Shown here: positions 1 to 14,895 of the stretch, in pieces
How positions within the stretch are numbered: the first letter of the stretch is position 1
How the letters are laid out: every line of letters begins with the position of its first letter
IMG/VR virus record: IMGVR_UViG_3300049919_000418
Span: 150,928-166,137 of that record
Reading direction: 5' to 3' (one strand)
DNA from: a virus
Lineage: Duplodnaviria; Heunggongvirae; Uroviricota; Caudoviricetes
Length of the DNA stretch: 15,210 nucleotides
Notes under the pieces: model-generated
The model's input: only the letters and a program-made list of their open reading frames with translations
Told to the model about the DNA's origin: nothing
The model's database searches: none
Program-made: the position numbers and the translations under genes

Positions 1-1
1 C

Positions 2-247: not shown

Positions 248-268
248 ATAAACATAATCAGACATAAT

Positions 269-574
269 ATGAGAAATCTTGTTAAATTAGAGGATCATTC
301 GATTCTTTCGGAGTTCAAAGAAAACACAAATCAATTAAAGGGAAAAACAATCAGCGCGGTTTTGGTTGCGGAGGATGAAGCCGATTACTATGAAATCCGT
401 TTCACGGACGGAACGGGGGCGAGGGTTGACGTTCATTGCGATAAGTTTTGTGAAGGCGCTCCAGTTGCGCGAGCTACAATTGTTTTCTTGACTAACGTTA
501 AATGTCCGCCCACGGGCGCGGCTGAAAAAGCTGAAGAACCGCGACGGGAAAGCTTATGGCCCGTTGATGCGTGA
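269..574 (+). CDS. Hypothetical protein, 101 aa
   Basis: ATG start after AT-rich spacer, normal globular composition, non-overlapping. Confidence 0.75.
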   Translation: MRNLVKLEDHSILSEFKENTNQLKGKTISAVLVAEDEADYYEIRFTDGTGARVDVHCDKFCEGAPVARATIVFLTNVKCPPTGAAEKAEEPRRESLWPVDA

Positions 575-625
575 CGCCTTGTTCGGCTTTTTTAAATTAA
601 AAAAATAAACAATCAATAAAAAGCA

Positions 626-1028: not shown

Positions 1029-1057
1029 TTGACAAACATTAAAAAATAAAACATTCT
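1029..1057 (+). promoter_or_regulatory. sigma70 promoter, leaderless geometry
   Basis: TTGACA-17-CATTCT-6nt-ATG(1064). Confidence 0.75.
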
Positions 1058-1063
1058 ATTTCC

Positions 1064-2146
1064 ATGAGCACGAAAAAAGTTGTGAAAAGCGGTGCGGTTG
1101 CCAAGAAAAGCGCCGCCGTGGTGAAAAAAAATATCAAACCTGCTGTGAAGAAATCTCATGCGGTTGTCAAATCTCACGATTCGGACGTTGACCTTTACTT
1201 TGATGAAGTGGTTGGACAACCACGGGCGAAAAAGCAACTCGGATTCTATCTGGATCGTCACATCAAAAACGGTTCCCCGGTTCCCCACCTGCTTTTGCTT
1301 GGAAGCAAGGGCGACGGTAAAACCCACCTTGCCAAAAAGTTCGCCAAAAATCTTCCCGATACGAAAGATCCGACACGAACAAACAAAGCGTTTTTCGCTT
1401 TCAACGGCAGCGCCATCGCATCGGTAACGATGCTTTTGGAAGATGTTTTGTCAAAGCTGCAAGACACGTATTGCACGGTGTTTATTGACGAGGCGCATGG
1501 ATTGCCGCCAAAAGTTCAAACGTCTTTGCTGACGATTCTTGAACCAAACGCGGCCAACCGAACGACTTACACCTTCAACGATGTTCAATACGAATTCGAT
1601 TTCCGCAAAATTACTTTCGTTTTCGCAACGACAGAAGATGACAAAATTTTTCATGCGCTGAAAGATCGGCTTCAATGCCTTGTGCTTGAACCATATACGG
1701 CAAAAGAACTGGCGGAAATTATCAACCGGATTGTCGGCAGCAAGGTTTCCTTTGAAAAGGGTCTTTTGGAAGAAATTTCAGGCTATGTGCGCCGAAATGC
1801 GCGGGATGCTGATCGGATGGCCAAAAACGTATTGTCTTTCGGCACTTCGCTTTTTGAGCGGGGACATTTTGAGATTCTTAAGGACAAGTTGAATCTTTTC
1901 CCTTACGGAATTACTCACGATGAAATCCGGGCGCTTAAGATTCTTCAATCGGACGGTGAATGCGCCCTTGGGCATTTAAGTTCGCGGTTGGCGCAACCCG
2001 CCAAAGCAGTTCAAAAGAGTCTGGAACCTTACCTTATTGCAGTTGGCCTTATGGAAATTGACGGCAAGCGCCGGATTACTGGGCTTGGGCGGACATTCCT
2101 TAAGGGAATCGGTGAAGGTGTGGAAACACCCGAAAAACTTCCGTAA
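1064..2146 (+). CDS. ruvB: RuvB-family Holliday junction branch migration AAA+ ATPase
   Basis: FDEVVGQ, PHLLLLG-SKGDGKT (Walker A), VFIDEAH (Walker B), FATT (sensor I), ALKDRL (Arg finger), RNARDA (sensor II), C-terminal winged helix with LEPYLIAVGLM...RRIT matching RuvB YEPYL...GR.AT. Confidence 0.9.
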   Translation: MSTKKVVKSGAVAKKSAAVVKKNIKPAVKKSHAVVKSHDSDVDLYFDEVVGQPRAKKQLGFYLDRHIKNGSPVPHLLLLGSKGDGKTHLAKKFAKNLPDTKDPTRTNKAFFAFNGSAIASVTMLLEDVLSKLQDTYCTVFIDEAHGLPPKVQTSLLTILEPNAANRTTYTFNDVQYEFDFRKITFVFATTEDDKIFHALKDRLQCLVLEPYTAKELAEIINRIVGSKVSFEKGLLEEISGYVRRNARDADRMAKNVLSFGTSLFERGHFEILKDKLNLFPYGITHDEIRALKILQSDGECALGHLSSRLAQPAKAVQKSLEPYLIAVGLMEIDGKRRITGLGRTFLKGIGEGVETPEKLP

Positions 2147-3353: not shown

Positions 3354-3382
3354 TTGACGGCGGGCAAATATTATTTAATGCT
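3354..3382 (+). promoter_or_regulatory. sigma70 promoter, leaderless, with GC dyad
   Basis: TTGACG-17(GCGGGCAAATATTATTT)-AATGCT-6nt-ATG(3389). Confidence 0.7.
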
Positions 3383-3388
3383 TTTGAT

Positions 3389-3529
3389 ATGAAGCCGCCG
3401 CAAGCATACATTTTGTTTTATCTTTTGCGCACGAACAGACATGCGCTGTTGCCGAAATTTTTGGAGAACAAGAATCCATCCACACGGGCCAGCCTTCAAC
3501 TGATTATTAATTATGAAAGCGACCGATAA
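3389..3529 (+). CDS. Small hypothetical protein, 46 aa (not in ORF track)
   Basis: MKPPQAYILFYLLRTNRHALLPKFLENKNPSTRASLQLIINYESDR; ATG exactly 35 bp after -35 box. Confidence 0.6.
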   Translation: MKPPQAYILFYLLRTNRHALLPKFLENKNPSTRASLQLIINYESDR

Positions 3530-3854
3530 ATGGAAAAAGCTGCGCGAGGGGAACATCTGTGGCATCGTGGATTCTTACGGCGCGGTTCATTCCGTGTTAA
3601 CAGAAACGGTGGAGTTTCACGCCGATCATTTTCCCCTTTCCCATTGTCAATGGCGTTGGGATTTTGACGAAAGCATTAATTGGATTTCAATTGAGCGCCG
3701 CCCATCTGAGGAGCAGTATGAAGCTATCAGAACCCATCTAACCAAAAAATACGGAATCAAGTGGTGGGATAATGGATATCATGATATTGACCACATCTTA
3801 ACGAAGTGTGGCAAGGTTCAAAATGAATTCGGCGTTTGGGTGGATAAGGCTTGA
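3513..3854 (+). CDS. Hypothetical protein, 113 aa
   Basis: ATG start, overlaps previous ORF by 17 bp, Trp/His-rich globular sequence. Confidence 0.8.
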   Translation: MKATDKWKKLREGNICGIVDSYGAVHSVLTETVEFHADHFPLSHCQWRWDFDESINWISIERRPSEEQYEAIRTHLTKKYGIKWWDNGYHDIDHILTKCGKVQNEFGVWVDKA

Positions 3855-3880
3855 CGGCGGCGCAAATATTAATTATTACT
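3851..3880 (+). promoter_or_regulatory. sigma70 promoter, leaderless, with GC dyad
   Basis: TTGACG-17(GCGGCGCAAATATTAAT)-TATTAC(T); ATG 3887; near copy of the 3354 promoter. Confidence 0.7.
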
Positions 3881-3886
3881 TTGTTT

Positions 3887-4099
3887 ATGAAAAGCGCTAA
3901 CATTCTTCGCGATCAAGAAATTGGTTTCCCAATGCTTACAGTGAGCGAAAAAACCGTAACAATATTCCTTCCCCAAGGGTGGGCGAAGTGGAGATTAAAT
4001 AAAATCATTAATTTCTTCCGCGATGTTGCTTTCGAAATTGAAGGACTTGGGATCACCGAAAAGGTTCGGGCTTTCTTTTCCAAGGGCAAATTGTTATGA
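3887..4099 (+). CDS. Hypothetical protein, 70 aa
   Basis: ATG 3887 chosen; the track TTG start 3851 is the -35 box itself. Confidence 0.7.
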   Translation: MKSANILRDQEIGFPMLTVSEKTVTIFLPQGWAKWRLNKIINFFRDVAFEIEGLGITEKVRAFFSKGKLL

Positions 4100-4356
4100 T
4101 GCCAATAAACGGTGTCAATACTCCAGTTCTGACTAAGGATTTTGAAATGGGCGGGCGCGAATGGCGGATTCTTTTTTGGCACGGTGGCGTTAGTGAAGAG
4201 CAGAAGGTGAAACTTGAAAAAATCTGTTATAAAAAAGACAGCGACGAGTATTTTTGGTATAAAGGTAGTCTTGATTACTTTGAATTGGCGTGGGAGGAAA
4301 AGTTTTTGCTTTTAAATTCGGACGGAGGGGGACTTAATCTGCGTTACGCCTCATAA
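4096..4356 (+). CDS. Hypothetical protein, 86 aa
   Basis: ATGA 4-bp overlap with previous stop (translational coupling). Confidence 0.75.
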   Translation: MMPINGVNTPVLTKDFEMGGREWRILFWHGGVSEEQKVKLEKICYKKDSDEYFWYKGSLDYFELAWEEKFLLLNSDGGGLNLRYAS

Positions 4357-4383
4357 CAACTTTGGCCAACGATAAATTAACTT

Positions 4384-4530
4384 ATGAAAACAATTCCAAA
4401 ATTAGGAAGAACAGATAGAGAATTCGTTGCCCTAGCTGCCGCCGTTTTTGAGCAAGACGAAGAGACTAAAACAAAAATAATTTCCAGACAAGAGGAGATC
4501 CTCAAAGAGATGGAAGCGGCGGGCAGATAA
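4384..4530 (+). CDS. Small hypothetical protein, 48 aa (not in ORF track)
   Basis: MKTIPKLGRTDREFVALAAAVFEQDEETKTKIISRQEEILKEMEAAGR; helical composition, fills a gap. Confidence 0.6.
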   Translation: MKTIPKLGRTDREFVALAAAVFEQDEETKTKIISRQEEILKEMEAAGR

Positions 4531-4596
4531 CCATGCATTTAAAAAGAATCACCCGGAACATTCGAAAAATAAATCCATCGTGGTGTCGATTATTTG

Positions 4597-4624
4597 TTGA
4601 CAAATCGAATCATTAATTAATAAT
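4597..4624 (+). promoter_or_regulatory. sigma70 promoter, leaderless geometry
   Basis: TTGACA-16-AATAAT-6nt-ATG(4631). Confidence 0.75.
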
Positions 4625-4630
4625 AACGCC

Positions 4631-5119
4631 ATGACGAAACGAGAAAAGCTTTTAGAGTTTGCGACAAAGATGCACGAGGGTGTTTACCGTAAAGATGGGG
4701 TAACACCTTACATTGAACACCCGAAAGCGGTTGCCGCAATCGCGTTGGAAATGTATGAAAATGGGCATTGGATTGCTGAAAAAATTGACGCTCAAACTAA
4801 TTGGGACCACGTTTCCGCAGATACCATTTATGGCGTTGCGATCCTTCACGACCGGGAAGATGTTCCTTGGGTAACTCATGAAATGATTCTTGAGCGCTTT
4901 GGAAAGGAAATCGCAAATGGGGTGAAGGCTCTAACGGATGAAGGCGAGGCGACTTATCTTGACAAGGTATTAAAAGCAAAGCAAAATTTAATCTCCCGCC
5001 TTGTCAAGGTCGCTGATAACATCCATAACGGATCTGACTTACCACAAGGGAATTTAAAGGACAAATACTTGCTCTCCCGATATATTCTTGAAACTTATTC
5101 GGGCGGGCCAACTGCATAA
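4631..5119 (+). CDS. HD-domain small alarmone hydrolase (RelA/SpoT hydrolase, Mesh1-like)
   Basis: MHEGVYRKDGVTPYIEHPKAVA, ILHDREDV, FGKEIANGVKALTD, LVKVADNIHN match RSH hydrolase motifs; no synthetase domain. Confidence 0.88.
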   Translation: MTKREKLLEFATKMHEGVYRKDGVTPYIEHPKAVAAIALEMYENGHWIAEKIDAQTNWDHVSADTIYGVAILHDREDVPWVTHEMILERFGKEIANGVKALTDEGEATYLDKVLKAKQNLISRLVKVADNIHNGSDLPQGNLKDKYLLSRYILETYSGGPTA

Positions 5120-5121
5120 AT

Positions 5122-5451
5122 ATGTCCCGCAGAAAATCCAACAAAATAATGCGGGAGCAACATATTGCTCATTGCATTGATCGTGCCGCCGAAAGGTTCC
5201 AGCTAACCCTAACAAAAGAGGACGTTCGGCATATTTCAAGGCAAATTGGAAAAGCACGTATGGGCCGGGAAGTAACGACTCCCATAAAGAAAATTAAAGC
5301 AAGATCCCTGCGCACAATTGAATATCAAATCACGTTCAGCGGCGCTACATTTTTTTGCTATTATTCTCTTAATGATCGATTAATTAGAACAATTTTCCAC
5401 CAAAGGCCGCCTTTAGATAAGGTAGTTGACACCCCTACCGGAATTAGCTAG
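5122..5451 (+). CDS. Basic hypothetical protein, possible RelE/BECR-fold (DUF4258-like) RNase
   Basis: N-terminal HCIDRAAERF (H-x3-R-x3-R) and C-terminal beta-rich IEYQITF...FCYY...LIRTIF; fold call is an inference. Confidence 0.7.
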   Translation: MSRRKSNKIMREQHIAHCIDRAAERFQLTLTKEDVRHISRQIGKARMGREVTTPIKKIKARSLRTIEYQITFSGATFFCYYSLNDRLIRTIFHQRPPLDKVVDTPTGIS

Positions 5452-5454
5452 CCT
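5426..5454 (+). promoter_or_regulatory. sigma70 promoter inside 3' end of upstream ORF, leaderless
   Basis: TTGACA-17-TAGCCT-6nt-ATG(5461). Confidence 0.75.
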
Positions 5455-5460
5455 TCCGCT

Positions 5461-5709
5461 ATGATTCTTCACACACTTTACGGCGGACGTTCTAAATCCA
5501 AAATGGTTCGCCTTGAAACAAATTCAAAAGAAAAATGCGAGCGTTATCGTGACGCGCTGAAGGTTACGGCCAATTGTAAATACAGATGGTTTGAAATTAA
5601 AATCGCCGCGCCCGATGAGGAATTGAAGGTTCACCGTTCGCAAAATGCTTGGACTGGATACAATCAGGGCGGGCCGAAAATCACTAAGGGGAAAACTCGC
5701 ACGCGTTAA
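5461..5709 (+). CDS. Basic hypothetical protein, 82 aa
   Basis: ATG at promoter +1 position. Confidence 0.75.
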   Translation: MILHTLYGGRSKSKMVRLETNSKEKCERYRDALKVTANCKYRWFEIKIAAPDEELKVHRSQNAWTGYNQGGPKITKGKTRTR

Positions 5710-5799
5710 AGAGGGTCTTTAATTTCTAGCGGAATAGAAACCATGTCGCTTCTGTCATCGTGCAAATCGTTCTTTCTGTGGATATTTACACATATTTTG

Positions 5800-5827
5800 T
5801 TGACTTGTGAGGGTTAAATGATAAGTT
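5800..5827 (+). promoter_or_regulatory. sigma70 promoter, leaderless geometry
   Basis: TTGACT-16-TAAGTT-5nt-ATG(5833). Confidence 0.65.
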
Positions 5828-5832
5828 CGTTC

Positions 5833-6384
5833 ATGGCTGAGGAGAAAAACATTTTAAAGAGAGTTATGAACAGGGTTGAGGAATGCTTTGTAATTGCCGA
5901 AAACCATTTTGGTCAAAAATTCCCCCGCGCTGTAGTAAGGTTCGATTTGACCGGAAAAACTGCCGGGACGAGCTTTTACGCAAAAAAACTTTTACGATTC
6001 AATAGAAAGTTGTTGATCGACAATGAGGCTTATTTTATGGAAACCTGCCTACCTCACGAGATAAGTCACCATATTTCCAGACACCTTTTCTCTTATAAAA
6101 ATAACCCAAGTCACGGGCCACATTGGAAACGGATTATGGTGGAGGTATTTAGACTTCCGCCAAAGCGTTGTCATTCACTCGATGTTTCCAAGACTCGACG
6201 TAAAACAACGGAATATAGATATATTTGTTTGTGCCCAAACAAGTTCCATTTTTGCGGCCTTAACAAACACGAGAAAATCAGGCGTGGGAATACAGAATGC
6301 TGTTCAAAGTGCAATTCTAAACTGGTTTTCGACGGCAAGGGACATTCACACGCCCCAACAAAACTAATTGAAACTGAATTGTAA
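5833..6384 (+). CDS. sprT: SprT-like zinc metalloprotease with C-terminal Zn ribbon
   Basis: FDLTGKTAG, LPHEISH (HExxH), HGPHWKRIM, H-S-L-D, YICLCP...CSKC; start at 5833 by promoter geometry. Confidence 0.9.
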   Translation: MAEEKNILKRVMNRVEECFVIAENHFGQKFPRAVVRFDLTGKTAGTSFYAKKLLRFNRKLLIDNEAYFMETCLPHEISHHISRHLFSYKNNPSHGPHWKRIMVEVFRLPPKRCHSLDVSKTRRKTTEYRYICLCPNKFHFCGLNKHEKIRRGNTECCSKCNSKLVFDGKGHSHAPTKLIETEL

Positions 6385-6388
6385 AATA

Positions 6389-6715
6389 ATGAAATCGATT
6401 GAATTATACGCGCTAGCAATTGTAATGACACTTACGATATCTTTGCCTCTTTTGGTAAGCTGTGACTCACAAGCCGAAAGGGACACCCAAAACGCCGCTA
6501 ACGCTCGTCAAGCTGAAAGCGCGTTCACACTTCCCGATGGAAGAAATGTAAAACGAATGGAGGTTATAATGGCGGGCCTTGCGCACAACCATTATGTTTA
6601 TTTCGTTGACAATACCGTAACTGTTAATCACACGGTTCAGCAAGGTAAAACATCTTATAGCGCGGTTGAGATTTTCATTGACGGCGTGAAATACGTTCCC
6701 GCCGAAAAATCTTAA
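6389..6715 (+). CDS. Putative lipoprotein, 108 aa
   Basis: MKS + hydrophobic helix + LVSC lipobox; ATG 6389 just after the sprT stop preferred to TTG 6368. Confidence 0.75.
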   Translation: MKSIELYALAIVMTLTISLPLLVSCDSQAERDTQNAANARQAESAFTLPDGRNVKRMEVIMAGLAHNHYVYFVDNTVTVNHTVQQGKTSYSAVEIFIDGVKYVPAEKS

Positions 6716-6727
6716 AGGGCGGCGCAA
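6714..6727 (+). repeat. 14-bp direct repeat AAAGGGCGGCGCAA (copy at 14605-14618)
   Basis: Exact match, both copies essentially intergenic; core GCGGCGCAA shared with promoters 3851 and 13833. Confidence 0.8.
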
Positions 6728-6745
6728 ACATTTTTAATAATTTTC

Positions 6746-6774
6746 TTGCTATTCCGGCTAGGATTCAATAGCTT
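6746..6774 (+). promoter_or_regulatory. sigma70 promoter (leadered transcript, predicted start ~6781)
   Basis: TTGCTA-17-TAGCTT. Confidence 0.55.
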
Positions 6775-6780
6775 GAATTT

Positions 6781-6845
6781 GACATACGGGAAGTTACCCG
6801 CCTATGGCAGTTTAGGTCTGCCGCGATTTTAAAACAAAATAAAAC
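6781..6845 (+). promoter_or_regulatory. Putative structured 5' leader
   Basis: CATA-CGGG/CCCG-CC-TATG and GGCAG/CTGCC stems, then A-rich tract before ATG 6846. Confidence 0.45.
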
Positions 6846-7307
6846 ATGAAACCCCGCACAATATTAGAATCAATTAATTCAAAGCCAAGCGCCGCCATCG
6901 AAGCGATGTGTCGCGGGCTTAAGAAACCCGTCAAGGAGCGAGGGTTTAAAGTTAATATGAATACTTTTGGCACGGTGGACGGCAAGGTTTGTTTCGGTTG
7001 CGCTGCAACCTGCGCAATTCAGGATCTTGCGGGATACAAATTCGGGCCGAGTGAGGTTGACTTTGTTGGAGGTTCAACCTACGGGGAGTTTCTCTTTTCC
7101 AAAAAAGAGGTTTTGAAATTTGAAAACGCGATGGATGACGCTCGCACGGGAAACTTCACAACTTTGTTTGAATTTTGCGGGCTGGATTATTACGAATGTG
7201 CCGTTGTCAGTGAAGAGCCGCGCATTCATATGTTCACAGATGATTATAAAAAACAAATCAAACCATTGTTGAAGTTCGCGGAATACCTCAAATCACAAGG
7301 ATATTAA
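6846..7307 (+). CDS. Hypothetical protein, 153 aa, CxxCxxxC motif
   Basis: VCFGCAATCAI; long clean ORF. Confidence 0.85.
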   Translation: MKPRTILESINSKPSAAIEAMCRGLKKPVKERGFKVNMNTFGTVDGKVCFGCAATCAIQDLAGYKFGPSEVDFVGGSTYGEFLFSKKEVLKFENAMDDARTGNFTTLFEFCGLDYYECAVVSEEPRIHMFTDDYKKQIKPLLKFAEYLKSQGY

Positions 7308-7308
7308 C

Positions 7309-7413
7309 ATGCATATTTTAGCTGAAGCGGCAACTTGGCCCGGAGTTGCGAATCAATTGATTAGCGGCGCGGTGGCTTGTTTTGTTATTTATATTCTTTT
7401 TCGCAAAGGTTGA
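7309..7413 (+). CDS. Small single-TM membrane peptide, 34 aa (not in ORF track)
   Basis: MHILAEAATWPGVANQLISGAVACFVIYILFRKG; TM helix plus basic C-terminus; 1 bp after previous stop. Confidence 0.65.
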   Translation: MHILAEAATWPGVANQLISGAVACFVIYILFRKG

Positions 7414-7419
7414 TTTTCG

Positions 7420-7448
7420 TTGACAGCATCCAGTTAATTAACTAATCT
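7420..7448 (+). promoter_or_regulatory. sigma70 promoter, leaderless geometry
   Basis: TTGACA-17-TAATCT-6nt-ATG(7455). Confidence 0.85.
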
Positions 7449-7454
7449 CCACCT

Positions 7455-7697
7455 ATGGCCAAGACAAGCATTCACAGCCCCTCAGAAATTGAGGTTGGAA
7501 AGATTTATGAAAGAGCGCGGCATGCCCGTGCAACTTACTTGGGGGTAGGTCGAAAAGCGTGGGGAGGCGAAGGATTTGAATTTAAATCATTAATTGTTCT
7601 TGAGGATTCGGGTGAGGGGTGTGTTGGGATGATTGTCACTACCCCTGAAGATAACGAAGAGTTTTGGGCCGAAGGGTTCTCTCTAATTGAAGACTAA
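7455..7697 (+). CDS. Hypothetical protein, 80 aa, acidic C-terminus
   Basis: ATG at promoter +1. Confidence 0.8.
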   Translation: MAKTSIHSPSEIEVGKIYERARHARATYLGVGRKAWGGEGFEFKSLIVLEDSGEGCVGMIVTTPEDNEEFWAEGFSLIED

Positions 7698-7701
7698 CTC
7701 C

Positions 7702-8004
7702 ATGAAAATTAAAAGCATTTTAGTTTGGCCAGACGAAGTCTGTTTGGGATGGGCGGCGGGTTGTGAAAACTACTCCGACGATACCCACCACGATCAAAAC
7801 AGCGCAGTTTCCGTTTGTGAAACTTTAATTAAAAAGGGGTTTGGCTGTGAGGGGGAAATCTTTCCAATTGCCGCACGGGTAGAAATCGACAAAGTTAAGG
7901 TTTTTGAGTGGACAAAAAACGAAGGGTTCGTTATGGTTCCTGAGCGTCAACCAAGCATGGTTGATCTTTGGACAAAAGAAACTTTATTTAACTTCAAAAG
8001 ATGA
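7702..8004 (+). CDS. Hypothetical protein, 100 aa
   Basis: ATG 7702 preferred to TTG 7687; DTHH...VCETL...GFGCEGEIFP. Confidence 0.75.
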   Translation: MKIKSILVWPDEVCLGWAAGCENYSDDTHHDQNSAVSVCETLIKKGFGCEGEIFPIAARVEIDKVKVFEWTKNEGFVMVPERQPSMVDLWTKETLFNFKR

Positions 8005-8468
8005 AGCCGCAATTTTCTCACGACTGCCCGCAGTGCAAATTTCTTGGGATTTCTTCCGATGGAAAGGATCTTTATTTTTGCCCAAAAGGACTAACAACTC
8101 TGATTGCGCGTTACGGCGATGGCGGGCCGCGCTATGTTAGTGGAATTGCTTTCGCCGATACGGTTCCAGCGTTAGGTGAAGCGAAAAAGCTTGCAATTGA
8201 CGCGGGCCTTACCATAGATAAGGCGAAGATGCCTGACGGCGATTTGATTTACGTTCTTTATGAGTGCAAGTTTGCGGACGATACCCAAGATTTTGACAGA
8301 ACAACAATCGCTGTTTCTCCGAGTCTATCCAAGATTCAGCAATGGGTTGCCGTCAACAAACCTGAATACACTTTAGATCCGGCAGAACCGGGCGACGACG
8401 AACTTATTTACGACAACGGCGCGGATTATCTGGTTTGCTATTTAAATAAAAAAATTCCATCACTATGA
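8001..8468 (+). CDS. Hypothetical protein with putative metal-binding HDCxxC...C N-terminal domain
   Basis: FSHDCPQCKFLG...DLYFC...LIARYG...YVSG; ATGA overlap. Confidence 0.8.
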   Translation: MKPQFSHDCPQCKFLGISSDGKDLYFCPKGLTTLIARYGDGGPRYVSGIAFADTVPALGEAKKLAIDAGLTIDKAKMPDGDLIYVLYECKFADDTQDFDRTTIAVSPSLSKIQQWVAVNKPEYTLDPAEPGDDELIYDNGADYLVCYLNKKIPSL

Positions 8469-8665
8469 AAAAAGCATTTACTTTTACTGCGATAAAGTCT
8501 GAGCCTAATGACCCGGACGCTTTTATTTTGGACCCCGAAAGGGAAGCGGCCAAAAATTCACGGCGTATCATTCAAGAAATGGAGCGCCAAAACGAAATTA
8601 CTGAGGAATCCAATCGAATTCGCCGCGAGGAATTGAATCGCAGTAATAATGCGGAAAAGCCGTAA
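8465..8665 (+). CDS. Hypothetical protein, 66 aa, charged helical C-terminus
   Basis: ATGA-type overlap with previous ORF. Confidence 0.7.
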   Translation: MKKAFTFTAIKSEPNDPDAFILDPEREAAKNSRRIIQEMERQNEITEESNRIRREELNRSNNAEKP

Positions 8666-8672
8666 AATTAGC

Positions 8673-8700
8673 TTGCATCTTCCTCAAATTGTGATACATA
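8673..8700 (+). promoter_or_regulatory. Probable sigma70 promoter, leaderless, TTG-N9-CAA dyad
   Basis: TTGCAT-16-TACATA-6nt-ATG(8707). Confidence 0.55.
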
Positions 8701-8706
8701 TAACCC

Positions 8707-9000
8707 ATGAAAGCAAAATGCATTGTCGCCGGATTGCTATTCGCCCTTACTTCGATTGCGCTTTGTGGGTCAGTTGAGGAAACTGAAGCGCGAAATAAGG
8801 CTCAAGAGCAAGCGAATCGAGAGAAAATTCAAAAGGAAAACAAAGAACAGCGCGAAGCCTTTAATCGTCAACCCGTGATAGATTGGGCTGTTAGAGAGCA
8901 CAATGCTGTTGTTCGGCACATTCGAGCATTGGAGGCGGCACAAATCAAAGATCGAGCAAAAGCAAAGCAAAAAGTTTTTGCTCCAGCAAAAAACAAATAA
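8707..9000 (+). CDS. Putative exported or membrane-anchored helical protein, 97 aa
   Basis: MKAK + hydrophobic IVAGLLFALTSIALCG signal-like N-terminus, coiled-coil-like body. Confidence 0.75.
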   Translation: MKAKCIVAGLLFALTSIALCGSVEETEARNKAQEQANREKIQKENKEQREAFNRQPVIDWAVREHNAVVRHIRALEAAQIKDRAKAKQKVFAPAKNK

Positions 9001-9006
9001 AATAAT
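8978..9006 (+). promoter_or_regulatory. Probable sigma70 promoter inside upstream ORF end, leaderless
   Basis: TTGCTC-17-AATAAT-6nt-ATG(9013). Confidence 0.6.
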
Positions 9007-9012
9007 AAATAA

Positions 9013-9306
9013 ATGTATTTTCTATTAGGATTAATTATCGAGATTGGTCTTACAATTTTTCGGGGTTTTGTATTTATGAAACTTTGGCTATGGTTTGTTG
9101 TTCCAACTTTTGCGGCAGCGGCTTTGAACATTCCGCAAGCGATAGGGATTAGTTTGATCGTAGGGTTTTTGACGATTCGTTCCATGAATACCTCACCGCA
9201 GGATGGCAAAACTTTGGTTGAAAGATCTATCGAACCCATGACGGCTTGGGCTGTCTTCTATACAATTGTGCTGATTTCTGGATTCGTCACAAAACAATTT
9301 CTTTAA
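9013..9306 (+). CDS. Integral membrane protein (about 3 TM helices), 97 aa
   Basis: Three long hydrophobic segments; FMKLWLWFVVP...IPQAIGISLIVGFL. Confidence 0.8.
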   Translation: MYFLLGLIIEIGLTIFRGFVFMKLWLWFVVPTFAAAALNIPQAIGISLIVGFLTIRSMNTSPQDGKTLVERSIEPMTAWAVFYTIVLISGFVTKQFL

Positions 9307-9336
9307 ATAAAAACGAATAAAAAACAAAATACAAAA

Positions 9337-9567
9337 ATGGCTAATTCCAACACTACTCGCGCCCGAAAGGGCGACCCACGCAACGGCATTGCACCAAATT
9401 CATGCTGGAGAGAATTTGCCATCGGGACAGGTGAATTTCATGGTTTTGGATACCGTGATGAGGCACCTATCTTCAAAGGTGTGGCTTGTGACACTAGCAG
9501 GCGCGGAAAAACCAAGTGGCGAGGAGCACTTCAAGCCCAAAAATTCATGGGCAAGGGAGATAATTAA
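9337..9567 (+). CDS. Basic hypothetical protein, 76 aa
   Basis: ATG after A-rich tract, followed by terminator. Confidence 0.7.
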   Translation: MANSNTTRARKGDPRNGIAPNSCWREFAIGTGEFHGFGYRDEAPIFKGVACDTSRRGKTKWRGALQAQKFMGKGDN

Positions 9568-9599
9568 AATAAATTTCCACATTGCGGAGAGTTAGCAGG

Positions 9600-9639
9600 A
9601 TGCGGCGGGGACTGGATGCCCGCCGCATTTTCTTTTTTT
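9600..9639 (+). terminator. Rho-independent terminator
   Basis: Perfect 10-bp stem ATGCGGCGGG/CCCGCCGCAT, 9-nt loop, then TTTCTTTTTTT. Confidence 0.9.
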
Positions 9640-9644
9640 AATGT

Positions 9645-9672
9645 TTGACAGAACATAATATTTCCATAAGAT
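9645..9672 (+). promoter_or_regulatory. sigma70 promoter, leaderless geometry
   Basis: TTGACA-16-TAAGAT-6nt-ATG(9679). Confidence 0.8.
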
Positions 9673-9678
9673 TGCGGC

Positions 9679-10425
9679 ATGACGAAAGAACGCATCGCGG
9701 AATTTATCGGGTTTTCAAAGGACGAATCCAAAAAACAAAATGGATATGTTTACGTTGGGCGCGGAAGTCTAACCAACTCTCTAGGGGGAGAGCTTGGAAT
9801 TAAACGGGGCGAGCTTCATCAATTTTTGCCAACTTCCAAGATTATGGATCGTGGCGAAAATTCGGGGTCTGAAAGATACTGCGAATATTATATCAAAAAA
9901 TCAAAGTGGAACGAACTTTTCGCCGAAAAAGAAACTGAAAACCCCGAACCGTTAGAATCGCGCATTGCGGCGGCGCAAGAACACATCGGGAAAGATATTG
10001 TTTCATTGTATAATAAAAATCGCCACGGGGTTGTAAAAAGGGTTGCGGTTTGCCTTTCTGAAGAGTCTGGAACTAAAGATTTTGGGCTGGACAAAAGAAT
10101 CACTCAAAAACACTTTAAAAACGGGCCGGAAATTCTTCTTTTGGGGGGTTGGAGCGACGGTGCTAAAATGGTTAGGGTTTTTGACAACAATTCCCTTGAA
10201 ATTTACGTTGAAAAAATCAAAGTCAACGGATTTGACGCCGAAGATATGGGGGAGTATTATAAGTTTGGTTGCGCACAGATTCAAAAATCTCAACTTAAAC
10301 GAGCGAAAGAGTTTCTAATTGAAACAAACAAAGGTCTTTCGGGCTACTGCAACCGAAAAACTGAATCAGTTAAAATCGGTCAAGGCGACTTCACTCTGGA
10401 TATCCTCAACAAATTAAATCTTTAA
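9679..10425 (+). CDS. Hypothetical protein, 248 aa
   Basis: Long ORF at promoter +1; no recognisable motif. Confidence 0.9.
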   Translation: MTKERIAEFIGFSKDESKKQNGYVYVGRGSLTNSLGGELGIKRGELHQFLPTSKIMDRGENSGSERYCEYYIKKSKWNELFAEKETENPEPLESRIAAAQEHIGKDIVSLYNKNRHGVVKRVAVCLSEESGTKDFGLDKRITQKHFKNGPEILLLGGWSDGAKMVRVFDNNSLEIYVEKIKVNGFDAEDMGEYYKFGCAQIQKSQLKRAKEFLIETNKGLSGYCNRKTESVKIGQGDFTLDILNKLNL

Positions 10426-10441
10426 AATAGTAAATAATGCA

Positions 10442-10469
10442 TTGACGCCGCGCCCGATTTCGCTATGTT
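10442..10469 (+). promoter_or_regulatory. sigma70 promoter, leaderless, GC-rich spacer
   Basis: TTGACG-16(CCGCGCCCGATTTCGC)-TATGTT-6nt-ATG(10476). Confidence 0.8.
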
Positions 10470-10475
10470 TATCCC

Positions 10476-10658
10476 ATGACGACAACGAAGGACAAGCCGA
10501 ACAGCTATCGCGCCGAACTATTTCGGATGGCAATGGTGTGCTTTCCTAACCGTCACCACGAAAACGGCATGGCGCGGAGGAATGCGCGGGACAAACTGAA
10601 TTCCTTTTTTGCTCACGGACGGAGTTGGAATCGGTGGAGGGATGGAGTTTTAAAGTAA
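10476..10658 (+). CDS. Small basic hypothetical protein, 60 aa
   Basis: ATG at promoter +1. Confidence 0.7.
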   Translation: MTTTKDKPNSYRAELFRMAMVCFPNRHHENGMARRNARDKLNSFFAHGRSWNRWRDGVLK

Positions 10659-10663
10659 AAATC

Positions 10664-10807
10664 ATGAGAACCTCTTTAATCGAATGTAAATGCCGTAAGA
10701 CGGCTTGGAGACGCGCCCCTTGGGCATCAGCAGTCACAAAGGTTTGTGGCGGCTTCAGGGCCTTTGAGTGCGTTGAAAGCTATCGCATTTGGAAAAATCA
10801 AAAATAA
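10664..10807 (+). CDS. Small phage protein, 47 aa
   Basis: MRTSLIECKCRKTAWRRAPWASAVTKVCGGFRAFECVESYRIWKNQK; resembles, from memory, a small phage family (PWA..I.KV.GG..AFES..DY..W..QK); ATG 10664. Confidence 0.75.
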   Translation: MRTSLIECKCRKTAWRRAPWASAVTKVCGGFRAFECVESYRIWKNQK

Positions 10808-10814
10808 ATAAAAT

Positions 10815-10830
10815 GCTAACAGTTGTTGCG
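10815..10830 (+). repeat. 16-bp direct repeat GCTAACAGTTGTTGCG (copy at 13483-13498)
   Basis: Exact match; both copies end in the TTGCG -35 box and lie 35 bp (from the -35) upstream of an ATG. Confidence 0.85.
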
Positions 10831-10854
10831 GCGGGGCAAATAATATGATTACTT
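10826..10854 (+). promoter_or_regulatory. Probable promoter, leaderless geometry, GC dyad
   Basis: TTGCGG-17-TTACTT-6nt-ATG(10861); alternative -10 TATGAT at 10844-10849. Confidence 0.55.
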
Positions 10855-10860
10855 ATTCGT

Positions 10861-11229
10861 ATGGATTTCAACATTACATCCCTCGCCGCCGAAAAGCTTG
10901 TGCCAATCACCTATTCCCCGAAAAATCGGGGATCGGAATGGAAAAGGGCAAAGCGCAAAGCGACTCAATTTAAATTCATTGATTCGGTTGACAAGATCGG
11001 AGCCATGCTGGAATACATGAAAGATTCTGGCGGGTGGGATGCTGAGGAACGCCGCGCAATGAGCTTGCACGATTTTAACGCGCTATTTCTTCAAATGGTT
11101 GCCAGCGAGCTACGCGATGCCAATGCGGAAACACTGGATTCAATTGATTGGGGCGCGTATGAAGCGAACGACAATCGCGGAAATCTTTTCAAATCATGCG
11201 AGGAATACTTTATTTATATTGGGAATTGA
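10861..11229 (+). CDS. Phage hypothetical protein, 122 aa
   Basis: SGGWDAEE...DFNALFLQMVASELRD conserved-looking block. Confidence 0.85.
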   Translation: MDFNITSLAAEKLVPITYSPKNRGSEWKRAKRKATQFKFIDSVDKIGAMLEYMKDSGGWDAEERRAMSLHDFNALFLQMVASELRDANAETLDSIDWGAYEANDNRGNLFKSCEEYFIYIGN

Positions 11230-11230
11230 A

Positions 11231-11259
11231 TTGACAGCGCCCGAAATTTTAAGTAATCT
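11231..11259 (+). promoter_or_regulatory. sigma70 promoter, leaderless, GC-rich spacer
   Basis: TTGACA-17-TAATCT-6nt-ATG(11266). Confidence 0.85.
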
Positions 11260-11265
11260 GCGCCT

Positions 11266-11445
11266 ATGAAAACGTTTAGCGCTCTAGTCGCCCGCATCAA
11301 TTCAGCGAAAACCCCTGAAGATTTCAGTAACTTTCAAAAACAGATTGATCGCCACTACGGCAACGGAACACTAACGGTTAATGAATACAAGCGGTTGGAC
11401 GTTAAAATCATGGTCGATTCAGTCAAGCAAGACCAAGCAAAATGA
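11266..11445 (+). CDS. Small hypothetical protein, 59 aa (not in ORF track)
   Basis: MKTFSALVARINSAKTPEDFSNFQKQIDRHYGNGTLTVNEYKRLDVKIMVDSVKQDQAK; ATG at promoter +1. Confidence 0.75.
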   Translation: MKTFSALVARINSAKTPEDFSNFQKQIDRHYGNGTLTVNEYKRLDVKIMVDSVKQDQAK

Positions 11446-11600
11446 AAGTGCATATCATCATTCCAGAAGAGGGGTTTAGACTTTACAATCAAGCGAAGTC
11501 TGACGCGGTTGAAGCCATCAAAACGATGGGCACCACGGCGACGACATTATTTTGGTTGTCAAGGCAGGAATTCCAAAAAAGGAAATTCTTCAAGCTCTGA
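11442..11600 (+). CDS. Small hypothetical protein, 52 aa (not in ORF track)
   Basis: ATGA overlap; MKVHIIIPEEGFRLYNQAKSDAVEAIKTMGTTATTLFWLSRQEFQKRKFFKL. Confidence 0.6.
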   Translation: MKVHIIIPEEGFRLYNQAKSDAVEAIKTMGTTATTLFWLSRQEFQKRKFFKL

Positions 11601-11639
11601 AACAGATTGAGGAATACGTCAAAAAAGATCTTTAATGTA

Positions 11640-11668
11640 TTGACCGATTCCAAAACGTTTAATAATCT
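11640..11668 (+). promoter_or_regulatory. sigma70 promoter, leaderless, TTG-N8-CAA dyad
   Basis: TTGACC-17-TAATCT-6nt-ATG(11675). Confidence 0.8.
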
Positions 11669-11674
11669 TCCGGC

Positions 11675-11941
11675 ATGAACATTCTCCCATTCACAAAAGC
11701 GGTTAGCTTCGCGAAACTCCAAAGCGGGACAACTGGACTGATTCACCAAGTCACGCCAAGTTTCCAATGGGTTTTTGACGGTGTGGACGATTACCGGAAA
11801 CTCCACGGTTGGGCTGTTAAACTGCTTGTGGAAAACGGCAGAACGGTTGAAGTGAACCATAACGGATCAACTGGACGGCGTAAAACTTACAAGCGCAAAG
11901 ACCTTGGGCGGGCAATGGCTCGCTTGACAGTTAAATTTTAA
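11675..11941 (+). CDS. Hypothetical protein, 88 aa
   Basis: ATG at promoter +1. Confidence 0.8.
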   Translation: MNILPFTKAVSFAKLQSGTTGLIHQVTPSFQWVFDGVDDYRKLHGWAVKLLVENGRTVEVNHNGSTGRRKTYKRKDLGRAMARLTVKF

Positions 11942-11951
11942 TTTAAAAAAT
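11924..11951 (+). promoter_or_regulatory. Probable promoter inside upstream ORF end, leaderless geometry
   Basis: TTGACA at 11924, ATG exactly 35 bp later (11959); weak -10 (AAAAAT). Confidence 0.5.
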
Positions 11952-11958
11952 CAAAATC

Positions 11959-12111
11959 ATGAGCGCCGTCAATCCTATTTTTATTCATACCCGTATCAAC
12001 GGTGACATGAACCGCACTACATATTCAAAGAAACAATTGAATTGTATTAAAAACGAAACCCGCACGCAAGTTAGATTTTTCCTCTTGCATATTCGTGAAA
12101 AACATTTATAA
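11959..12111 (+). CDS. Small hypothetical protein, 50 aa (not in ORF track)
   Basis: MSAVNPIFIHTRINGDMNRTTYSKKQLNCIKNETRTQVRFFLLHIREKHL. Confidence 0.6.
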   Translation: MSAVNPIFIHTRINGDMNRTTYSKKQLNCIKNETRTQVRFFLLHIREKHL

Positions 12112-12114
12112 ATC
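12085..12114 (+). promoter_or_regulatory. Possible promoter, leaderless geometry
   Basis: TTGCAT 36 bp before ATG 12121; -10 imperfect (TAAATC). Confidence 0.4.
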
Positions 12115-12120
12115 ATTTCC

Positions 12121-12606
12121 ATGACAACAACAGCAAAGTCAAGTCTCGCCCGCCTCGCTCTTTTCGCCCTTGCCGAAACCCGCTTCGGGTTTGACATGGC
12201 GCGATTTGTGACTCGAAAGGATGGGAACTTTGGGGTTTATGATCCCCATACGGTTCCGACTTCTTTAGAAACGGATCAGATTGAATCACTGTGCCTTGCG
12301 GGACATGCACCGTTGGCCCTAGGCAAAACCAAAGCAAAAGAAAGTTGGGATCATTATTTGGCAAGAGTTGTTTTCGACAAAATGCCCGAAGATGAACTTT
12401 ACGGCGCGAAAGATTTTCTCTTTTTTGGCGATTATGGGCAAACCCGACTGCAAGCGGTCAAACGGGTGTTGTATTTCCTTTTAAAAGGGCTTCCCAAGAA
12501 TCATGACGGGAACGATCAGAAGTATCTAACCAGTTTTAACGCCGCCAAGGTGCGCGAAGAGCTTGAAAAGTTCGTCAAGCTGGACGTTAAACTTGATTCA
12601 AAATAA
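12121..12606 (+). CDS. Phage hypothetical protein, 161 aa
   Basis: SLCLAGHAP...ESWDHYLARV...FLF...AVKRVLYFLLKGLP conserved-looking pattern. Confidence 0.85.
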   Translation: MTTTAKSSLARLALFALAETRFGFDMARFVTRKDGNFGVYDPHTVPTSLETDQIESLCLAGHAPLALGKTKAKESWDHYLARVVFDKMPEDELYGAKDFLFFGDYGQTRLQAVKRVLYFLLKGLPKNHDGNDQKYLTSFNAAKVREELEKFVKLDVKLDSK

Positions 12607-12613
12607 AAATACC

Positions 12614-12745
12614 ATGTCACTACTTGAAGGATTACTTGATGGACTTGCATTCAGCGCGGAACCGAAATCGGCCCCGAAAAGGGTTGACAAACGGCGGAAA
12701 AGATCCAAACTAGCAAAAGTTAGCAGGAAACGCAATCAAAAATAA
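12614..12745 (+). CDS. Very basic small protein, 43 aa
   Basis: ATG 12614; C-terminus KRVDKRRKRSKLAKVSRKRNQK. Confidence 0.65.
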   Translation: MSLLEGLLDGLAFSAEPKSAPKRVDKRRKRSKLAKVSRKRNQK

Positions 12746-12966
12746 TGAAATCACGTTTGGGTGAACTTCAATCAAAATTCAATAACTCTGGAATTAAAGG
12801 TCCGGTTATTACTGACGCGGAATTAAAAGAGCTTTTGTTAGGATTGGTTGAGTGTGCCAACTTCATGTCAGACCGGGGAGATGGTTCGATGTGTTTTTGC
12901 ATGAGAATGGAGTCTGAATCCGTTGAGCGAATGATTGACGCCCGCAAAGAAAAATCTTTTTATTAA
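12745..12966 (+). CDS. Hypothetical protein, 73 aa
   Basis: TAATG 1-bp overlap with previous stop. Confidence 0.75.
   Translation: MKSRLGELQSKFNNSGIKGPVITDAELKELLLGLVECANFMSDRGDGSMCFCMRMESESVERMIDARKEKSFY
12935..12966 (+). promoter_or_regulatory. Possible promoter inside upstream ORF end, GC dyad
   Basis: TTGACG-CCCGCAAA; ATG 37 bp downstream; -10 uncertain. Confidence 0.45.
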
Positions 12967-12971
12967 ATATC

Positions 12972-13475
12972 ATGAGCGAATACAAAGGAAAACTAATCGG
13001 TGTTCGGGCTTTTGCCAAAATGAGTGACGCTGAAAAGCGAGTTGCAATAGCGAAAGACGTTCTTTTGAGAGTCGAACTTGAAAACGTAATGCCAAGACAG
13101 GGAAATTTTTGGAGGTCAGATTGGAATGATAGCAGTTTGACCCCACAAAAGGCAATTAATAAAGGCGGTTGTTCGGTTTGTGCGAAGGGCGCGATTTTTT
13201 GCACTTGGGTTGGAAATTTCAACAAGATTGATTGGAGTTATGCAAGGTATGTTAGCGAGAGAAGCACGAGCTTTCCAGAAGAAATTTTAGAAGTCTTTCC
13301 TGCCGAAATGCTTGACAATATCGAAGCGGCGTTTGAGGGGGATAATTATGCTTGGCATGTAAACGGCCACCTTTCTCGCAAATATGCAGTCGCTTTTAGG
13401 GGGAAAGCATCCCTAGGGGAAATCATGGAATATCTCGTTAAGCATGGGGGAGAATTTCCACTACCAACAATTTAA
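12972..13475 (+). CDS. Hypothetical protein, 167 aa, CxxC motif
   Basis: GCSVCAKGAIFC ... IEAAFE; long clean ORF. Confidence 0.85.
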   Translation: MSEYKGKLIGVRAFAKMSDAEKRVAIAKDVLLRVELENVMPRQGNFWRSDWNDSSLTPQKAINKGGCSVCAKGAIFCTWVGNFNKIDWSYARYVSERSTSFPEEILEVFPAEMLDNIEAAFEGDNYAWHVNGHLSRKYAVAFRGKASLGEIMEYLVKHGGEFPLPTI

Positions 13476-13493
13476 ATTAAAAGCTAACAGTTG

Positions 13494-13522
13494 TTGCGCC
13501 GCGCCAATTAATATGTTTTTAT
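13494..13522 (+). promoter_or_regulatory. Probable promoter, leaderless geometry, GC dyad
   Basis: TTGCGC-CGCGCCAA...; ATG 13529 at 35 bp; alternative -10 TATGTT at 13512-13517 in the same register as the 10826 promoter. Confidence 0.55.
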
Positions 13523-13528
13523 TTGTTT

Positions 13529-13825
13529 ATGAATGAAACTCCCATCGCGCCGCCAATCAATTGCAGGACTGTTCCCCAAGCGAACGGTCTTCCAATTGGA
13601 TTTGTTTTTGTTTCGGCTGGTTCCCACCGCGCTCGTCAAAAAATGTATGGCGTGTGCGGATCGCGCAAGGTGGTTGAACACTACCTCTCTCTTTCTTTGC
13701 GGGGCGGACAACACGCCGCCCTTATTTCGAATGAAGAATACGAACGGGCAAAAAACATTACTGGAGTGAGAAAAACAAGAAAACAAAGGGTTTCGGAATG
13801 GATTCCCTGCATGTCATTTATGTAA
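13529..13825 (+). CDS. Basic hypothetical protein, 98 aa
   Basis: ATG 13529 chosen by promoter geometry. Confidence 0.75.
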   Translation: MNETPIAPPINCRTVPQANGLPIGFVFVSAGSHRARQKMYGVCGSRKVVEHYLSLSLRGGQHAALISNEEYERAKNITGVRKTRKQRVSEWIPCMSFM

Positions 13826-13832
13826 AATTCAA

Positions 13833-13861
13833 TTGACAGCGGCGCAAAATTTAGCTATTGT
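13833..13861 (+). promoter_or_regulatory. sigma70 promoter, leaderless (GTG start), GC dyad
   Basis: TTGACA-17(GCGGCGCAAAATTTAGC)-TATTGT-6nt-GTG(13868). Confidence 0.85.
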
Positions 13862-13867
13862 CTTTTT

Positions 13868-14227
13868 GTGAGCAAATTCAAAGTCGGGGACAGAATCAGG
13901 GTTATTTCCAACAAAGGGAATGAAAATTTTTTCAGCGTGGGGGAGGTCGGAATTTTAGCGGCCCGCTGCGTCGATGGCGATTGGAAGGCGAGCTTTAAAA
14001 ACGAACATCCAAAACGGTATATTGAAGAGTCTGATTTTGAATTGGAGGAACCGATAACAGAAACTTTCACGATTGCGGAAATCGCGGATTACATTGCAGG
14101 TTGGGCAAGTGGACCCTTTGAATCTGTCAAGGCGATTGGCGCGGCAACCCTGCTGAATGCGCTGAATCAGTTGGAGGACGATCAAGACGGCATTTCCGCT
14201 GTTCGTAAAAGAAAAGAGAATCAATAA
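13868..14227 (+). CDS. Hypothetical protein with N-terminal KOW/SH3-like barrel
   Basis: KFKVGDRIRVI...VGEVGIL...WKASF...IEESDFEL pattern; helical acidic C-terminal domain. Confidence 0.8.
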   Translation: MSKFKVGDRIRVISNKGNENFFSVGEVGILAARCVDGDWKASFKNEHPKRYIEESDFELEEPITETFTIAEIADYIAGWASGPFESVKAIGAATLLNALNQLEDDQDGISAVRKRKENQ

Positions 14228-14786: not shown

Positions 14787-14830
14787 ACTCCAGCCACCTA
14801 AAGCAAAGAACAAAAAACAAAACAGAACAG

Positions 14831-14850
14831 AGTAGATAACAGTAGATAAC
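14831..14850 (+). repeat. Tandem 10-bp repeat (AGTAGATAAC)x2
   Basis: Exact duplication, preceded by (AACAG)x2. Confidence 0.85.
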
Positions 14851-14895
14851 AATAGGGAATAATAAAACAGAAAATCGGTTTTCAATAATTTCTGA

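Follow-up and report, generated by a model that had tools for sequence, protein, structure and literature searches.

What is the G/C-rich string that sits against the -35 box of many promoters in the small-gene region of an uncultured freshwater tailed phage? The region is the last 15.2 kb (15,210 nts, positions 150,928 to 166,137, which we call the window) of a 166,137-bp virus record with 41.8% GC (IMG/VR record IMGVR_UViG_3300049919_000418, Caudoviricetes). The window is of the early type, with about 19 promoters located directly upstream of small open reading frames (ORFs), most of which have no family. The original prediction described the string as a GC-rich TTG-N6-9-CAA dyad built onto the -35 box of nine promoters, and interpreted it as an operator or activator site that defines a promoter subclass. 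We find that the promoter subclass is supported and that the operator interpretation is not. The subclass is real and is marked by a G/C block, which is recognisable from its composition and position and not from its sequence. So far the block is a statistical regularity of a single genome, from which we infer a function.

Host-type promoters and their start codons

Promoters in this genome take the form TTGAC(A/G/T)-N16/17-TAnnnT-6 nt-ATG. When the distance is taken from each + strand TTGAC to an ATG or GTG at the head of an ORF of 40 aa or more, it has a peak at 33-35 nts, with counts of 8, 8 and 17. Almost every other distance in the range 20-60 nts has a count of 0-4, with the exception of 9 cases at 41 nts, and the minus strand has no such peak. 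The + strand includes 45 matches to TTGAC-N16-18-TANNNT. An ATG or GTG lies exactly 6 nts past the -10 in 14 of the 45, where about one is expected (background 0.023 per position), and at 5 or 7 nts in 3 more. When the -35, the spacer, the -10 and the start codon are combined into one promoter rule, the genome has 29 calls, 27 of them on the + strand, compared with a mean of 4.3 calls in 10 first-order Markov genomes. Both the hexamers and the 16-18 bp spacer are those of sigma-70-type promoters by sequence match. A generic promoter scan produces 34 calls vs 23.2 in shuffled sequences, barely above background, and we leave it out of the counts.

In sigma-70 promoters, a start 7 nts after the -10 places position +1 on the A of the ATG, and these genes are therefore predicted to be leaderless. 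The prediction of leaderless mRNAs comes from geometry alone: the start codon is at the predicted +1, and there is no Shine-Dalgarno (SD) signal (14 of 173 ORFs, compared with 10.3% in random windows). The regions upstream of the ORFs are A/T-rich and G-poor. An ATG exactly 6 nts past a -10 hexamer is seen at dozens of genes. Leaderless-type starts in the window are found at 1064, 3389, 4631, 5461, 7455, 9679, 10476, 11266, 11675, 13868 and others. The rIIA gene has a leaderless-type geometry both in this genome and in many distant metagenome contigs that carry rIIA. SD-scarce translation has been reported for Bacteroidota and for some Verrucomicrobia (PMC10783764).

We also observe two particular sequences of promoter type. 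The string TTGACAGATCCGC…, with a start codon 6 nts past the -10, appears in a metagenome phage contig (L065:17080) and twice in an Akkermansiaceae genome (G003, contigs C246 and C298). A candidate promoter at window positions 6711-6845 has a poor -35 (TTAAAG), a G/C run (6717-6725), an A/T tract, TAATAA and about 90 untranslated nts, followed by an ATG at 6846. Rfam has zero matches for 6711-6845, and zero matches for the window as a whole.

A G/C block adjacent to the -35

In a subclass of these promoters, a block of pure G/C, 6-10 bp in length, starts at the last base or two of the -35 hexamer. The block occupies positions of about -30 to -23, and an A/T tract occupies about -13 to -22. The position profiles show an A/T-rich tract reaching up to the -10 in both promoter classes. 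The block is present in 8 of the about 19 promoters in the window and in 5 more elsewhere in the genome, and the block promoters span from 73 kb to 165 kb. The lists of the two classes (13 promoters with the block and 15 without) are curated by hand, and five of the sites have a -35 other than TTGAC. The promoters with the block or with a similar G/C-rich string are as follows, in window coordinates unless stated.

3354..3391, + strand: G/C-block promoter, predicted leaderless; -35 TTGACG (3354-3359), G/C run 3358-3365, A/T tract, -10 AATGCT (3377-3382), ATG at 3389 opening a 46-aa ORF.
3851..3889, + strand: G/C-block promoter, predicted leaderless; -35 TTGACG (3851-3856, which includes the TGA stop of the upstream ORF), G/C run 3855-3863, -10 TATTAC or ATTACT (~3874-3880), ATG at 3887.
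10442..10478, + strand: G/C-block promoter, predicted leaderless; TTGACG (10442-10447), G/C run 10446-10456 with junction GAT and no CAA, -10 TATGTT (10464-10469), ATG at 10476.
10826..10863, + strand: GC-rich promoter, ambiguous; TTGCGG-N17-TTACTT-6-ATG (10861), G/C run 10828-10837.
10816 (CTAACA) to 10839 (AATAAT), + strand: alternative reading of the 10826 site, CTAACA-N17-AATAAT, with a 16-nt leader.
11231..11268, + strand: G/C-block promoter, predicted leaderless; TTGACA (11231-11236), G/C run 11237-11243 with junction GAA, -10 TAATCT (11254-11259), ATG at 11266.
12935..12974, + strand: the least regular G/C-block promoter, located within the 3' end of ORF 12745-12966; TTGACG (12935-12940), G/C run 12939-12945, weak -10 TTTATT or TTATTA, ATG at 12972, at a distance of 37 nts from the TTG.
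13494..13531, + strand: GC-rich promoter, a duplicate of the 10826 module with the same ambiguity; TTGCGC (13494-13499), G/C run 13496-13505, ATG at 13529.
13833..13870, + strand: G/C-block promoter, predicted leaderless; TTGACA (13833-13838), G/C run 13839-13845, -10 TATTGT (13856-13861), GTG at 13868.
Genome positions 73130 (NUDIX gene), 102780 (M23 peptidase), 105273 (RNA ligase/HNH), 128511 and 137538 (rIIA): G/C-block promoters outside the window.

The promoters without the block include the following.

8673..8709, + strand: leaderless-type promoter; TTGCAT-N16-TACATA-6-ATG (8707).
8978..9015, + strand: leaderless-type promoter; TTGCTC-N17-AATAAT-6-ATG (9013).
11640..11677, + strand: promoter predicted leaderless; TTGACC-N17-TAATCT-6-ATG (11675).
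1029..1066, + strand: A/T-spacer promoter of the comparison class, predicted leaderless; TTGACA...CATTCT-6-ATG (1064).
Starts at 4597, 5426, 5800, 7420, 9645, 11924 and 12085: further A/T-spacer members.

We score the G/C content of the 7-nt window immediately 3' of the -35 hexamer. The block is enriched over background genome-wide: all seven positions are G/C at 7 of 24 promoter TTGACs vs 7 of 469 non-promoter TTGACs (Fisher P=7e-7), and at least six are G/C at 9 of 24 vs 38 of 469 (P=1e-4). Amongst the 29 promoters called by rule, eight score 7/7 and three score 6/7, while the remainder are mostly between 0 and 5. A score of 7/7 appears in none of the 43 promoter calls in the ten simulated genomes. 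The score is bimodal, and the subclass is therefore discrete; to this extent, the proposal of a promoter subclass marked by a GC-rich element abutting the -35 is borne out. The two classes also differ in the -35 itself, which is TTGACG in 7 of the 13 block promoters and in 0 of the 15 others.

The sequence upstream of the -35 provides a separate observation. At -14 to -18 upstream of the -35, the G/C fraction is 0.08-0.23 in the 13 block promoters, compared with 0.33-0.47 in the other class. The numbers are small; the A/T-rich stretch is possibly an UP-like element associated with the block.

Composition without a motif

The dyad proposed for these promoters has arms of only 3 bp, and its inner positions are complementary in 9 of 37 cases, which is the level of chance. 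All nine promoter strings, together with a "free copy" at 11904, are present in the window where they had been reported, and the nine sites can reasonably be taken as promoters, each lying 34-37 nts upstream of the ATG or GTG of a 46-167 aa ORF. At 10442 and 11231, the related GC boxes are present as well. A GC-rich core is found at six of the nine sites and is missing at 8673, 8978 and 11640 (4/9, 4/6 and 4/8 G/C). The estimate that about 2 in 20 promoters would have the CAA by chance was accurate: genome-wide, the pattern TTG-N6-9-CAA follows 839 of 8476 TTGs (9.9%) and 52 of 493 TTGACs (10.5%), and the window has 56 occurrences per strand. The pattern is present in 9 of 28 curated promoters against a background of about 10% (P=0.001), but the CAA arm is not conserved, as it is absent in 7 of the 13 block promoters. 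The pattern occurs in 6 of these 13 and in 3 of the 15 others, the latter not significant (P=0.18). The junction at the end of the block reads CAA in 6, GAA in 5 and GAT in 2 of the 13 cases, and the CAA is the junction at which a block that happens to end in C meets the AA that follows. The recurring feature is a G/C block followed by AA, and CAA is a by-product of the TTG of the -35 and this junction. Strings of this kind are frequent: G/C runs of at least 7 number 593 in the genome (490 expected), and there are 217 cases genome-wide of a G/C run with an A/T-rich tract after it, so that the strings at 11904 (the "free copy"), 6717 and 14608 carry no weight.

Nor is there a sequence motif that a specific operator or activator would read. 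When the blocks are anchored at their right ends, the 7-mers match at 3.23 of 7 positions, compared with 3.50 +/- 0.16 for random genomic G/C runs; the pure G/C blocks alone match at 3.62 of 7 (P=0.25). The blocks resemble each other no more than random G/C runs do, and they have no symmetry. A dyad-symmetric operator of the lambda, LexA or TetR type, with arms of at least 4 bp and a shared consensus, was not found in the blocks.

We rejected several other candidates. The block is not part of a hairpin or terminator: in 85-nt folds at 13 sites the mean z relative to shuffles is -0.03, and the block has no consistent pairing partner. It does not mark GC-richer foreign cassettes, as the GC content of the downstream ORFs is 0.443 for block promoters vs 0.433 for the others (P=0.75), and that of the upstream sequence likewise does not differ. 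The genes are not paralogous, with no blastp match at E<=0.01 amongst the 28 downstream proteins. Mere promoter duplication also fails as a general account, since only one pair shares an extended module: promoters 10826 and 13494 have in common 43 nts that are 86% identical, and the remaining promoter pairs share 11-20 nts. The 43-nt module (…GCTAACAGTTGTTGCG…TAATATG, window 10790-10850 and 13460-13520) stands ahead of two unrelated small ORFs, and it is the sole clear duplication of a promoter region.

The phage, its relatives and its host

The phage is found in many freshwater metagenome sequencing runs, in which the population is nearly clonal, with zero variants within the promoters. The record is classed as linear and is about 78% complete. 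Its genes include the large terminase, a 2383-aa tape measure protein, a family-A DNA polymerase with an HNH insert, a DnaB-like helicase, ribonucleotide reductase, rIIA, RNA ligases and NAMPT, in addition to 17 tRNA genes. In the window, Pfam and related scans assign no family to most of the ORFs. One gene encodes a phage sigma factor of 151 aa that has only region 2 (genome 64419-64874; L004:4419-4874, + strand), which matches Pfam Sigma70_r2 (E=5e-9) and phrog_351 (E=3e-19). This region-2-only sigma factor suggests a separate class of late promoters. A recurrent (A/G)GTGTAA(T/C) appears after an A/T-rich stretch, about 10-40 nts upstream of several structural-gene starts, and is a candidate for the late promoter element that the phage sigma factor would recognise.

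Genome 395, 2056, 8284, 10124, 17135, 20327, 31058 and 71104, + strand: (A/G)GTGTAA(T/C) motif, outside the window.

The last 700 bases of the record have no genes and contain a short direct repeat, AGTAGATAAC, in two copies with a third imperfect copy (window 14830-14865).

The host is probably a member of the Verrucomicrobiota, judging from a shared attC core. The core, taken from the window's first bases, matches 24 species genomes, of which 11 are Verrucomicrobiota.

Window 1-600 region: attC-type core, 18 nts, at the start of the window.

We rejected the possibility that the block is a promoter style of such hosts: in four Verrucomicrobiota genomes with the attC core (~19 Mb), the G/C-block pattern has 3 matches vs 9 for reversed-pattern controls; in the 166 kb of the phage it has 5 vs 1. 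The leaderless pattern has 5 occurrences in the same ~19 Mb.

The relatives that we could find are distant. A megablast of the window against phages gives zero matches, and tblastn searches with the terminase, rIIA and the RNA ligase give distant matches only. Scans of IMG/VR with rIIA, the RNA ligase and the terminase return nothing, matches to the HNH domain only, or 100% identical fragments (L013 and L014). The closest rIIA protein is 47% identical, another rIIA gene is 46% identical, and a profile search of genome contigs with the rIIA alignment gives zero matches. A metagenome scan with rIIA identifies 80 distant loci, many of them near-duplicates of each other, to which the leaderless geometry is common. 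Amongst the 88 leaderless-type promoter calls in these 80 loci, only one has a G/C block. This single block-like case (L065) has spacers that are G/C-rich throughout, unlike the architecture of the phage. The closest locus (L042) has TTGACT followed by CGCCGC ahead of rIIA, with an irregular spacing, and we leave it uncounted.

How the block may act

We propose that many of the window genes each have their own host sigma-70-type promoter, with a predicted transcript that would start at the A of the ATG, and that the block would act in cis on the kinetics of RNA polymerase at the promoter. A stiff G/C half-spacer that is hard to untwist would lie beside an A/T tract that keeps the backbone contact at -17 to -23. 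The subclass would then differ from the A/T-spacer promoters in its strength, its dependence on supercoiling or its timing, with no sequence-specific repressor involved. We give such an intrinsic effect of the block on polymerase kinetics or timing a probability of about 40%. In E. coli promoter libraries, the spacer's GC content sets supercoiling sensitivity and growth-phase timing without a regulator (Klein et al. 2021, PMC8695583), and the composition of the phage promoters fits that of supercoiling-sensitive promoters with GC-rich spacers. An A/T tract at -17 to -23 stimulates initiation by a backbone contact with R451 of sigma70 (Warman et al. 2020, PMC7229825). If a 16/17-bp spacer is to keep this A/T tract, its G/C can lie only beside the -35, and that is where we see the block.

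Several points weigh against the intrinsic effect. The same E. coli study reports that the overall GC content of the spacer matters and that its position does not (PMC8695583), and therefore it leaves the strict anchoring at the -35 unexplained. The anchoring and the all-or-none character of the block would suit equally well a factor docking beside sigma region 4. We found no topoisomerase gene in the 166-kb record, which is about 78% complete. Close relatives did not turn up in the collections searched, and the block is known from one genome. The class lists used in the tests of junction, similarity, fold, GC content and duplication are those curated by hand. Promoters 10826 and 13494 have an alternative reading, for which the generic scan gives CTAACA-N17-AATAAT or ATTAAT with a 16-nt leader and a -10 within the conserved part of the module, and promoter 12935 is irregular. 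Finally, the one metatranscriptome run yielded 26 short contigs and no usable 5' ends, and therefore start sites, activity and timing are all inferred.

An alternative to the intrinsic effect that we regard as possible, though unlikely, is that the block is a docking site for a protein, encoded by the phage or by the host, that senses the G/C composition or the shape of the DNA beside the -35, and that activates, represses or re-targets the sigma-70 RNA polymerase, following the logic of a MotA box or a spacer operator and with no dyad. The strict anchoring at the 3' edge of the -35 and the bimodal, all-or-none G/C content point in this direction, as do the multi-stage programme of the phage with its own region-2-only sigma factor, and an element that is specific to the phage and not to the candidate host-lineage genomes. 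With most window ORFs lacking a known family, there is also room for such a factor. A docking protein is harder to reconcile with blocks that have no common sequence or symmetry, and no recognised DNA-binding regulator appears in Pfam scans of the 38 window ORFs and 128 other ORFs. Searches with PF09114 and PF09010 (MotA/AsiA) and the Pfam scans also found no match, a weak argument because the control genomes were silent as well and the record is about 78% complete. In a more specific version, a phage factor beside sigma region 4 would read the composition or shape of the block as a class-specific element at a retained -35, and would switch a subset of the leaderless host-type promoters on or off during infection, a MotA-like logic attained along another path in a phage whose host is probably one of the Verrucomicrobiota. 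We find this version somewhat more doubtful.

A block without a function of its own is improbable. According to this explanation, promoter cassettes spread by duplication or recombination amongst small early genes in a genome rich in G/C runs, a shuffling for which PeSL cassettes are a known precedent (PMC2839356). The shared module of 10826 and 13494 is what such spread would leave behind, and the pairs 3851/13833, 11231/13833 and 102780/128511 share 16-20 nts; the frequency of G/C runs, alone or followed by an A/T tract, goes in the same direction. Yet the block sequences are as different from each other as random G/C runs, their flanks and downstream proteins are unrelated, and the members are scattered from 73 kb to 165 kb. 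The 20-fold enrichment over non-promoter TTGACs and the lack of 7/7 scores in simulated promoter calls also argue against a passive origin. Last, a TTG-N6-9-CAA dyad operator or activator site built on the -35 box is very improbable, given its 3-bp arms, the block promoters that have no CAA and the listed sites (3 of 9) that have no GC core.

Should timing or strength in fact depend on the block, a phage would have in it a simple means, independent of sequence, of dividing host-type promoters into classes, and it would give a compact design rule: a -35, a G/C clamp, an A/T tract, a -10 and an ATG. The wider picture may outweigh the block itself. This is a large freshwater phage with an attC type that links it to Verrucomicrobiota, with no SD signal and with dozens of apparently leaderless genes, and it may offer a way into gene expression in a group of hosts that has been little studied.

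Comparison with known systems

In the literature outside subscription journals and supplements, no phage promoter class with a -35-proximal G/C block came up. The operators of lambdoid phages are near-palindromes of 17 bp that are conserved, occur in tandem and lie close to a repressor gene. They resemble the block in placing a G/C-rich sequence inside the spacer of TTGAC-type phage promoters; near-palindromes, tandem copies and a nearby repressor gene were not seen in this phage.

The T4 middle promoters that depend on MotA have a MotA box centred at -30, with a TGCTT core, which replaces the -35 hexamer. The analogy with MotA had been drawn in the original prediction, and what they have in common with the phage is a class-specific element in the -35 to -25 region, a staged phage programme and a dedicated late sigma factor. 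The analogy does not extend to the element itself: the phage promoters retain the TTGAC of the -35, TGCTT is found in 0 of 28 promoters, and the block has no consensus.

The effects of spacers on E. coli sigma-70 promoters are similar in that a G/C-rich part and an A/T tract are combined in one 16/17-bp spacer, and an effect that depends on composition fits the lack of a motif. They differ in that those are synthetic or E. coli promoters in which the position of the G/C is irrelevant, whereas the phage has a sharply bounded block fixed beside the -35, in a natural and discrete subclass of predicted promoters.

The closest known arrangement is found in T4-type phages that have no MotA, where sigma-70-type early promoters precede ORFans, and above all in the PeSL (promoter-early stem-loop) cassettes. 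These are described for RB49 and phi1, two T4-type phages that lack MotA and that have sigma-70-type early promoters before small ORFans (Arbiol et al. 2010, PMC2839356). Both systems have a dense array of small ORFans in which each gene has a near-consensus -35/-10 promoter, and in both a G/C-rich sequence, which in PeSLs is a stem-loop, can fall between the -35 and the -10 (PMC2839356). One pair of phage promoters (10826 and 13494) also shares an extended module. The PeSLs, unlike the 6-10 bp block with no hairpin (mean z -0.03), have a stable G/C stem-loop; they are conserved over about 100 bp, whereas the phage blocks have no conserved sequence and only one 43-nt pair; and PeSL genes have a Shine-Dalgarno, whereas the phage genes are predicted to be leaderless and have none. 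Phage early promoters of host type are known, and what is new is the variant with a G/C block adjacent to the -35.

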